Source: a virus (Duplodnaviria > Heunggongvirae > Uroviricota > Caudoviricetes). From it: 5,910 bases of DNA. Below, piece by piece: positions 4,790 to 5,200 of the stretch. The stretch lies in the IMG/VR virus record IMGVR_UViG_2531839237_000018; one strand, given 5' to 3'. The position numbers and the translations under genes are program-made. Position 1 is the first letter of the stretch, and each line of letters begins with the position of its first letter. The notes below the pieces were generated by a model, which worked only from the letters and a program-made list of their open reading frames with translations, was not told the origin of the DNA and searched no databases.

Positions 4790-5200
4790 GGTGTTCACAG
4801 AACACACAGTTACCGGACACATCAGTTTTCCATTCGTCCCCCGGCAGTACAGGCTTCCCGTCTGACGGGATAGCCTGAAAAAACACAGAAAATTATTTGT
4901 TATAATTAATATAACTTACTCAAAAAAAAGCGACGAGAAAATCAGCATCAACGAGCAATAAGCGCCAATACGTGATAACAAATGGCAGCCATATTTATCT
5001 GCAGTATAAGCAATGGACAGGATAACCACACCAGAAACCGTCAGCATAAAATCCATTTGAACTTCCCCGGACAAAATCGACTCATCTAAAGATTTACAGC
5101 TCTTTTTATTATCAATATGTTAAAAGTAAAATAAACAGATGTTCAATAATACGAATACAAAAACGTGCTGAAAATCAATGAATCCATTTCTGTGTTATCA
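4790..5200. other. A+T-rich island (moron-like insert) with little coding capacity
   Basis: Composition drops sharply relative to the flanking G+C-rich phage genes (by eye; not computed). Long A/T runs, TATAAT-like hexamers, and only one short plausible ORF. Confidence 0.5.
4916..5056 (-). CDS. Hypothetical 46-aa hydrophobic peptide (possible small membrane protein); speculative
   Basis: Hand translation MDFMLTVSGVVILSIAYTADKYGCHLLSRIGAYCSLMLIFSSLFFE. ATG at 5056 with GGGGAAG 5 nt upstream. Two hydrophobic stretches. Below the ORF-track size cutoff; could be a chance ORF in AT-rich DNA. Confidence 0.2.
   Translation of the reverse strand: MDFMLTVSGVVILSIAYTADKYGCHLLSRIGAYCSLMLIFSSLFFE

Follow-up and report, generated by a model that had tools for sequence, protein, structure and literature searches.

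The closest described counterparts of the locus analysed here are the Rz-to-cos morons, namely lambda bor and the gnsB, ynfN, ynfR, ynfQ and cspI genes of Qin: additional DNA of distinct composition between lysis and packaging genes, variable in presence, with small genes expressed from the prophage. Another relative in kind is gp15 of phage HK97, a moron-encoded inner-membrane protein of superinfection exclusion, whose gene lies among the tail genes. The type I toxins of Escherichia coli (Hok, Ldr, TisB, Ibs, ShoB, ZorO and DinQ) are hydrophobic peptides of <60 amino acids (aa), sometimes prophage-borne, and to our knowledge each of them has a single hydrophobic helix. Here, we analysed the IMG/VR virus record IMGVR_UViG_2531839237_000018 (Caudoviricetes), a stretch of 5,910 nucleotides hereafter called the window, in which an A+T-rich island (4756..5210) carries a 46-aa open reading frame (ORF), ECs1538, on the minus strand (4916..5056).

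The moron concept is used in the sense of Juhala et al. 2000, as cited in PMC4104026. The island shares with the Rz-to-cos morons all of the traits listed above. However, it shows no sequence relationship to lambda bor or to the Qin genes, and no clear terminator bounds it. Moreover, lambda bor lies on the strand opposite to the late operon, unlike ECs1538. As for HK97 gp15, ECs1538 would likewise be a small membrane protein of a lambdoid/HK97-like prophage moron, expressed in lysogens, and proteins of the gp15 type may serve as a working functional model, although the two share no homology and occupy different genome positions. On balance we lean, if modestly, towards the view that the region is a moron with an orphan gene for a small two-helix membrane peptide, expressed in lysogens from its own promoter. 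ECs1538 was already annotated and its expression already tabulated, and this is an ordinary moron, not a new kind of system.

Results

The island occupies a variable slot

Read in reverse complement, the window corresponds to the late region of an E. coli O157:H7 lambdoid prophage. Upon alignment, positions 1-5842 were 99.93% identical to the Sakai prophage Sp6 (3 mismatches and 1 gap), window position x lying at 1,566,168 - x of NC_002695.2, and positions 4560-5700 were 100% identical to many O157:H7 chromosomes. The minus strand carries, in order, a holin gene, YdfR, an endolysin, an antirepressor fragment, Rz/Rz1, a 74-aa ORF, the island, an HNH endonuclease, TerS, TerL and the prohead protease/capsid, so that it can be assigned to the Q-dependent late operon. 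ECs1538 is on this late-operon strand. The ynfO gene, which separates the island from the HNH gene, is encoded on the plus strand.

A first-pass annotation, made from the letters alone, had pointed out an A+T-rich island between G+C-rich phage genes and had read it as a horizontally acquired moron. Both views held. The GC content is 0.37 over 4790-5200, against 0.566-0.573 for the rest of the window, and BLAST junctions with related phages set the limits of the insert at 4756..5210, that is, 455 bp with a GC content of 0.36 vs 0.57. In phage vB_EcoS-569R3, homology ends at 4755 and restarts at 5211, with 42 bp of unrelated sequence replacing the 455 bp of the window, and the composition break coincides with this insertion/deletion polymorphism. 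The left junction falls inside the 3' end of ynfO, such that the island encodes the last ~10 codons of YnfO, whose C-terminal tail differs with each allele of the slot. In our architecture survey, ynfO was the constant neighbour of this variable slot.

Other prophages hold other cargo at the same place. In the Stx2a phage Stx2_EH1846 and in Sakai Sp9, the slot contains an unrelated A+T-rich filler of ~210 bp, and the equivalent interval of K-12 Qin contains cspI, ynfQ, ynfR, ynfN, gnsB and ydfO. This indicates that the Rz-ynfO junction is a swap site for accessory cargo, known to be expressed in lysogens in the case of hnrS of Sp9 (see below) and of the gnsB, ynfN, ynfR, ynfQ and cspI genes of Qin. 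The cassette of the window was found in 734 of the 5426 complete E. coli genomes (about 14%), including O157:H7 and O104:H4. The ~140 copies that we fetched always had the order Rz, 46-codon ORF and convergent ynfO, and they adjoined packaging genes of either the lambda type (Nu1) or the HK97 type (HNH/TerS), with or without the 74-aa ORF. Absence from one related phage, other cargo in others and a distinct composition are what one sees with mobile morons. The island is a 455-bp cassette in a variable slot, with the lysis genes (Rz and, in some phages, orf74) on one side and ynfO and the packaging genes on the other. Many database entries of the 46-aa protein are partial (29-44 aa), with draft contigs ending inside the gene; presumably, assemblies break in or near the island because its flanks repeat among co-resident prophages.

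The same slot houses a small RNA (sRNA) in sibling prophages. EcOnc12 was reported at 1779522-1779569(-) in the old Sakai numbering (PMC4104026 supplement). Old and current numbering differ by 141 bp at Sp6 and, assuming the same offset at EcOnc12, this RNA falls by coordinates within the Sp9 filler, on AACAAUAAUAAUCUUCUACCC...CACGGCAG-U7. EcOnc10-12 were recently named HnrS, a 66-nt Hfq-dependent sRNA repressing hha (PMC13502914). HnrS sits in the slot of the ECs1538 island in Sp9, Sp10, Sp12 and Stx2a phages, flanked by the ynfO stop on one side and the junction TTCTTCCACCATCGC on the other, within A+T-rich filler. We located hnrS at 3148-3211 of the Sakai Sp9 sequence and at ~1880 of the Stx2_EH1846 sequence, on the ynfO strand, in the slot equivalent to window 4756-5210; among the loci compared, its core was present only in these two. 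The hnrS gene is non-coding, with a clear intrinsic terminator (CTGCTGTGACTCCAACACGGCAG-T7) and a CUUCU seed, whereas the window island has a coding frame on the opposite strand and no terminator. Comparison of the window island with the hnrS/Sp9 filler yielded only chance matches of 7-10 nt and no homology. On the same grounds, we discarded an origin of the island from that filler by copying, be it with inversion or with divergence.

The frame of ECs1538 is conserved among alleles

ECs1538 (also ECs_1538; NP_309565.1, WP_000347013.1) extends from an ATG at 5054-5056 to a stop at 4916-4918, exactly where the first-pass annotation had placed a 46-aa ORF, and its product is MDFMLTVSGVVILSIAYTADKYGCHLLSRIGAYCSLMLIFSSLFFE. 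It is already annotated in TW14359, Sakai, EDL933 and O104:H4, and both the Sakai entry and the RefSeq protein WP_000347013.1 bear the name "hypothetical protein". It had been called the only plausible ORF of the island. This is right for ATG ORFs of at least 40 aa, but shorter ones exist at 4779..4886 (minus), 4982..5089 (plus) and 5143..5265 (minus).

Alleles of the island fell into four groups: the O157 type, the O104:H4 type (97% identical), the L087 type (~90%) and the SHP24/L152 type (77-82%). The frame is open in all four groups, to about 80% identity, and no internal stop or frameshift was found among the 17 distinct ORF sequences collected. Variation at the ends concerned the start codon (ATG/GTG) and, at the C-terminus, the length of the T-run before the stop. 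Using a minimum-spanning network of 13 distinct alleles, we counted 18 synonymous vs 21 non-synonymous changes, which corresponds to a ratio of non-synonymous to synonymous polymorphism (pN/pS) of 0.34 (p=0.001). This was the lowest value of the six frames, the other five ranging from 0.44 to 1.23. For the most divergent pair, non-synonymous over synonymous divergence (dN/dS) was 0.14/0.50, and a permutation gave p=0.02 for hydropathy conservation. Replacements were mostly V/I, S/A, L/F and M/I. As judged from these alleles, evidence for purifying selection on the annotated frame appears moderate but real.

Conservation is uneven along the island. Identity to the most divergent allele was 93% over 5101-5145, 82% in the ORF, 75% over 5146-5220, 68% in the 5' untranslated region (UTR) and 62% in the 3' flank. 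An upstream promoter-like block (5102-5136) is the best conserved part of the island, with 93-100% identity in all allele groups, and the 3' flank is the least conserved part (62-66%).

ECs1538 is transcribed and ribosome-covered in Sakai lysogens

The Sakai island differs from the window island by 1 nt. Expression values were taken from RNA sequencing (RNA-seq) and ribosome profiling (Ribo-seq) of Sakai in the supplementary tables of Hücker et al. 2017 (PMC5597208), whose numbering is offset by 141 bp from the current record. Strand-specific RNA-seq and ribosome profiling had been suggested as checks in the first-pass annotation, and in these data from lysogens the ORF is transcribed and covered by ribosomes (PMC5597208 S2 Table). 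In lysogeny broth (LB), ECs1538 gave 57.6 reads per kilobase per million (RPKM) of RNA and 26.1 RPKM of footprints, with a ribosome coverage value (RCV) of 0.46 and a coverage of 0.98. In brain heart infusion (BHI), RNA was at 32.7 RPKM and footprints at 7.3 RPKM (RCV 0.23, coverage 0.81), and under BHI stress these values were 2.1 and 0.6 RPKM. Other genes of the late strand had, in LB, RNA and footprint values of 3.0 and 2.1 RPKM for ECs1537 just upstream, 10.1 and 6.7 RPKM for ECs1536 further upstream, and 8.4 RPKM for both in the case of the holin gene ECs1530. Thus, transcription of ECs1538 is 6-19x that of the late genes just upstream (PMC5597208 S2 Table). The rise of RNA from ECs1537 to ECs1538 indicates that transcription starts inside the island, between ~5198 and 5057. 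A moron in an uninduced lysogen would be expected to start its transcription internally in this way, and expression from a repressed prophage is what the published Sakai RNA-seq displays; the position of the promoter is a prediction.

RNA of the ECs1538 strand runs past the stop codon to ~4750 at 38-50 RPKM and overlaps the 3' end of ynfO, whose convergent RNA is at 45.6 RPKM in Sakai lysogens. Two "novel translated ORFs" of Sakai have been reported in this 3' spacer on the ECs1538 strand, XECs147 (4751-4912, minus, ATA start) and XECs148 (4782-4886, minus, GTG start). Their conservation is poor, and in all likelihood they are not genes but reflect the 3' UTR of ECs1538 mRNA.

From a position weight matrix (PWM) scan and from conservation, the best candidate promoter of ECs1538 is predicted at 5117..5146 on the minus strand, with a -35 TTGAAC (5141-5146), an 18-nt spacer and a -10 TAACAT (5117-5122). 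It falls within the conserved block and would start transcription near 5110. The BPROM position implied by the XECs147/XECs148 rows (LDF score 8; PMC5597208 S3) maps to window 5117; the ECs1538 row of the same work gives another promoter distance, which we could not reconcile with 5117. An alternative promoter-like site, TTTTCA-17-TATTAT (5146..5174, minus), has TGTTAT as its -10 in the O104:H4 type and GATAAT in the SHP24 type. An upstream inverted repeat, TTATCA-N8-TGATAA, was considered as an operator and rejected, as it is not conserved in the SHP24-type allele.

Downstream, the spacer between the convergent ynfO and ECs1538 genes (4783..4877) folds strongly (z -4.2 and -4.0). Of its hairpins, a long one spans the ynfO stop (4783-4813), a weaker one lies in the middle and a G+C-rich one occupies 4850-4877. 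None of them has a canonical U-tract, and a terminator-like match lies on the minus strand at 4791-4805. As a terminator is part of the moron definition, we note that the same-strand RNA described above runs on through these hairpins. Over 4775-4920, both strands are strongly structured (z about -4) in the O157 and O104 alleles only; the fold signal was not seen in alleles L003, L152 and L151. Such a signal resembles that of hairpins separating convergent genes. Because the strong folds are confined to those two allele types, we rejected the view that they form a conserved structured 3' UTR or a terminator.

The product is a predicted two-helix membrane peptide

AlphaFold2 (AF2), run with a 3-sequence alignment, predicted helices at residues 2-22 and 24-44 of ECs1538 with a pLDDT of 72, and the protein had been predicted as an inner-membrane protein with 2 transmembrane helices (PMC5597208 S9 Table). 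The first-pass annotation had mentioned a small membrane-protein moron among its readings. Given the conservation of the ORF and an expression above that of the flanking late genes, a small membrane-protein cargo is indeed most likely.

Relatives were sought in several ways. Word-indexed and exhaustive protein searches retrieved only near-identical E. coli sequences, the rest being fragments or long repetitive proteins. A scan of one genome per species with the protein and a conserved 24-mer gave only a chance match, in a metagenome-assembled genome of Flavobacteriales without the ORF. Comparison of the AF2 hairpin with viral structures (Foldseek) had a best E=9.5. We found no main-text mention of ECs1537-ECs1539 in the literature, and the peptide is absent from the supplements of the "Cryptic Bacterial Microproteome" paper.

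Alternative readings of the locus

The alternative that survives best is that the island is non-functional filler, that is, A+T-rich junk at a recombination junction, with transcription from the spurious initiation that is typical of foreign DNA rich in A+T, a chance 46-codon frame and a background ribosome signal. We consider this unlikely, but a series of observations speaks for it and weighs against a functional gene. First, when the island was shuffled by dinucleotides, an ATG ORF of at least 46 aa arose in 46% of cases, and in 28% on the T-rich strand. The peptide is hydrophobic, as the first-pass annotation had said (mean hydropathy 1.11), but 13.5% of random ORFs on that strand are equally hydrophobic or more. 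Indeed, the strand of ECs1538 is 39% T and random ORFs there average a hydropathy of 0.64, because T-rich codons encode hydrophobic residues. Second, every sigma-70 candidate on either strand scored at or below the median best score of shuffled sequence, and ECs1538 has no evident terminator. Third, the Shine-Dalgarno (SD) sequence, described as reasonable, does exist in the form of an SD-like GGGGAAG (5062..5068, minus), 5 nt before the ATG, but it is weak and variable, reading GAGGAAG in Sakai and GGGTTAC in allele L152. Its published dG for ECs1538 is -3.6 (PMC5597208 supplementary table). The single-nucleotide polymorphism of Sakai at 5067 (A for G, coding strand) makes a better SD than that of the window, and the published Ribo-seq therefore stems from an allele with a better ribosome-binding site. 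Fourth, the adjacent XECs147 and XECs148, which are unlikely to be genes, are similar to ECs1538 in RPKM and in ribosome-coverage ratio (0.37-0.52), so that Ribo-seq is not a clean discriminator of translation from background. Fifth, the family is confined to E. coli: an exhaustive profile search with hidden Markov models found no homologue outside the E. coli cluster, and no family was assigned. Finally, the coding signal is drawn from few, closely related alleles. The most divergent pair alone gives p ~0.09 for "no stop and no more replacements than observed", 4/5 differences of the L087 allele are replacements, L5Q among them, and frameshifted variants (P0002, P0008, P0010) occur in the database.

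Filler is, however, opposed by the low pN/pS of the annotated frame and by an ORF and an upstream block that are clearly better conserved than the remaining island. The frame is also still open in alleles of about 80% identity, a divergence at which random substitutions introduced a stop in 52% of the sets. Likewise, footprint coverage reaches 0.98 for ECs1538, vs 0.60-0.72 for the downstream pseudo-ORFs.

Going back to a moron with a gene for a membrane peptide, a bolder version would make ECs1538 a new, E. coli-restricted membrane-active effector unlike the known ones in family, either toxin-like or acting in abortive infection or superinfection exclusion. Its level would be set by an interplay with the convergent ynfO RNA or, in O157/O104-type alleles, with an antisense RNA from the promoter-like element TGTTATAAT discussed below, and the Rz-ynfO slot would be a general docking site for lysogen-expressed regulators. 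We deem this improbable.

A role in lysis seems very improbable. In such a scenario, the peptide would come mainly from the Q-antiterminated late transcript and would modulate the holin or spanin, as an antiholin or a mini-pinholin. The position of ECs1538 would suit it, on the late strand and ~0.8-1.1 kb downstream of the Rz start, as would two short hydrophobic segments containing Ser/Gly/Thr/Ala and the presence of Met1 and Met4 in all alleles (MDFM / MGLM), which bears a faint likeness to a dual start. Yet the cassette is dispensable, since relatives with the same lysis genes do without it, and the prophage already encodes a class II holin, YdfR, an endolysin and Rz/Rz1. Expression in the uninduced lysogen exceeds that of the lysis genes. 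Known antiholin starts have a basic residue 2, whereas residue 2 is acidic or Gly here. No holin family was matched.

The first-pass annotation had also compared the locus to a type I toxin with its antisense RNA. In this scheme, ECs1538 would be a toxin that damages the membrane, and an antisense RNA from either of two sites on the plus strand would control its translation or stability. The first is the extended -10-like element TGTTATAAT (4898..4906, plus), which is present as had been described and has no usable -35; a start near 4913 would yield a transcript antisense to the entire ORF. It holds the only TGNTATAAT of the window. The caution that promoter-like hexamers arise by chance was well placed: TGNTATAAT turned up in 9% of the shuffles of the whole window and in 3.9% of those of the island, the latter making it somewhat unusual locally. 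It is kept in 79/85 fetched copies, almost all of which are near-identical alleles. The second site, TTTACA-17-TATGTT (5093..5121, plus), was recognised by motif; it overlaps the conserved block and shares its -10 position with the minus-strand candidate, and could give divergent transcription away from the ORF. In favour of a toxin, the peptide is small (46 aa, the usual bound being ~60 aa), hydrophobic (1.11) and encoded in a prophage, the very one in which hokD lies.

The comparison finds no support on the antisense side. The element TGTTATAAT belongs to an A+T palindrome, GTTATAATTAATATAAC (4899-4915), immediately 3' of the ORF. In the SHP24-type allele the element has the form TCTTATGAC, and in the L087 type a 10-bp deletion spans it; hence, it is mutated or deleted in 2/4 allele groups that keep the ORF, contrary to a joint conservation of ORF and antisense region. 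There is no plus-strand terminator-like site within 4500-5700, and plus-strand RNA over the ORF folds no better than shuffles (z +0.9, +0.56). An Rfam search of the whole window at E<=10, with AgvB, AsxR, Sok and STnc100 among the models, gave only noise and nothing in the island, and the supplements that we examined of Tree et al. 2014, a study of Hfq crosslinking, list no RNA at the locus. On the toxin side, the statement that the peptide matches no toxin family was borne out, as it had no match of any kind at E<=1 in Pfam, NCBIfam, PHROGs and PADLOC. In addition, ECs1538 has two hydrophobic helices, not one as in the toxins, and its ORF is visibly ribosome-covered in growing cells, unlike a tightly silenced toxin mRNA; the value of 0.98 obtained with growing Sakai cells is indirect evidence against a toxin that is potent and silenced. 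Since neither a conserved antisense sRNA gene with a promoter and a 3' end nor homology to a described toxin family was found, a type I toxin-antitoxin pair is the least probable reading of all and we set it aside.

Neighbouring features of the window

The ynfO/ylcI homologue (ECs1539; DUF3950; 4601..4786, plus), convergent with ECs1538, was identified through Pfam (8.9e-20), NCBIfam and phrog_949. The pattern RNIRFP...GSGNFSAWVIEACRRRL of its product was read as ribbon-helix-helix-like, with a weak HicB-like PHROG match (E=0.07) as sole support, and YnfO/YlcI had no match in PDB.

On the other side, the right-hand boundary of the slot is a late-operon spacer of ~200 nt (5211..5412, minus), formerly annotated as ECs1537 and since dropped from RefSeq. 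It holds no credible gene and gave no fold signal. Its identity is 89-91% in all relatives, with or without the island, and its RNA in lysogens is very low, as given above. The adjacent 74-aa ORF (5413-5637, minus) is found in only some island-bearing prophages; it matches only positions 100-172 of the 291-position profile phrog_2571, and looks like the C-terminal remnant of a longer phage protein.

Two further observations concern the packaging and capsid genes. In the HNH-TerS intergenic region (3975-4102), five copies of CAGTTAACAT / ATGTTAACTG occur in both orientations. Plausibly, they are candidate terminase small-subunit binding repeats adjoining the cos of a packaging module of the HK97-like, HNH-dependent kind. 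The region also includes two of the three mismatches to Sakai, at 4018 and 4080. A T run at 1104-1107 is one nucleotide shorter in the window (T3) than in Sakai Sp6 and TW14359 (T4). Owing to this 1-nt deletion, ECs_1543, the gene of a 645-aa fusion of prohead protease and major capsid, is split into a 191-aa protease ORF (1044..1619, minus) and a capsid ORF running from 1044 leftwards, whose ATG overlaps the stop (TAATG). It reflects either a defective prophage or a homopolymer sequencing error.

Discussion

Our preferred reading, a moron with an orphan gene for a membrane peptide, can be put in the form of a working model. A sigma-70 promoter inside the island, for which TTGAAC-18-TAACAT (5146-5117) is the best candidate, would transcribe ECs1538 in the lysogen, and the late transcript presumably reads through the gene in lytic growth. 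The peptide would consist of two hydrophobic helices that meet at Gly23, most likely forming an inner-membrane hairpin. By analogy with small membrane proteins from other morons and from the chromosome, it probably binds and modulates a larger host membrane protein. The element TGTTATAAT would then be an allele-specific by-product of the A+T-rich palindrome in the 3' spacer and not a required partner. Our best guess is that ECs1538 may have a role in lysogenic conversion, either in phage exclusion or in adjusting a transporter or a sensor.

If ECs1538 is a functional membrane peptide in lysogens, it would be one more uncharacterised lysogenic-conversion factor of these prophages. The most useful by-product of this study is that the Rz-ynfO slot alternates between ECs1538 and hnrS in sibling prophages of enterohaemorrhagic E. 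coli (EHEC), and other alleles of the slot are worth mining.

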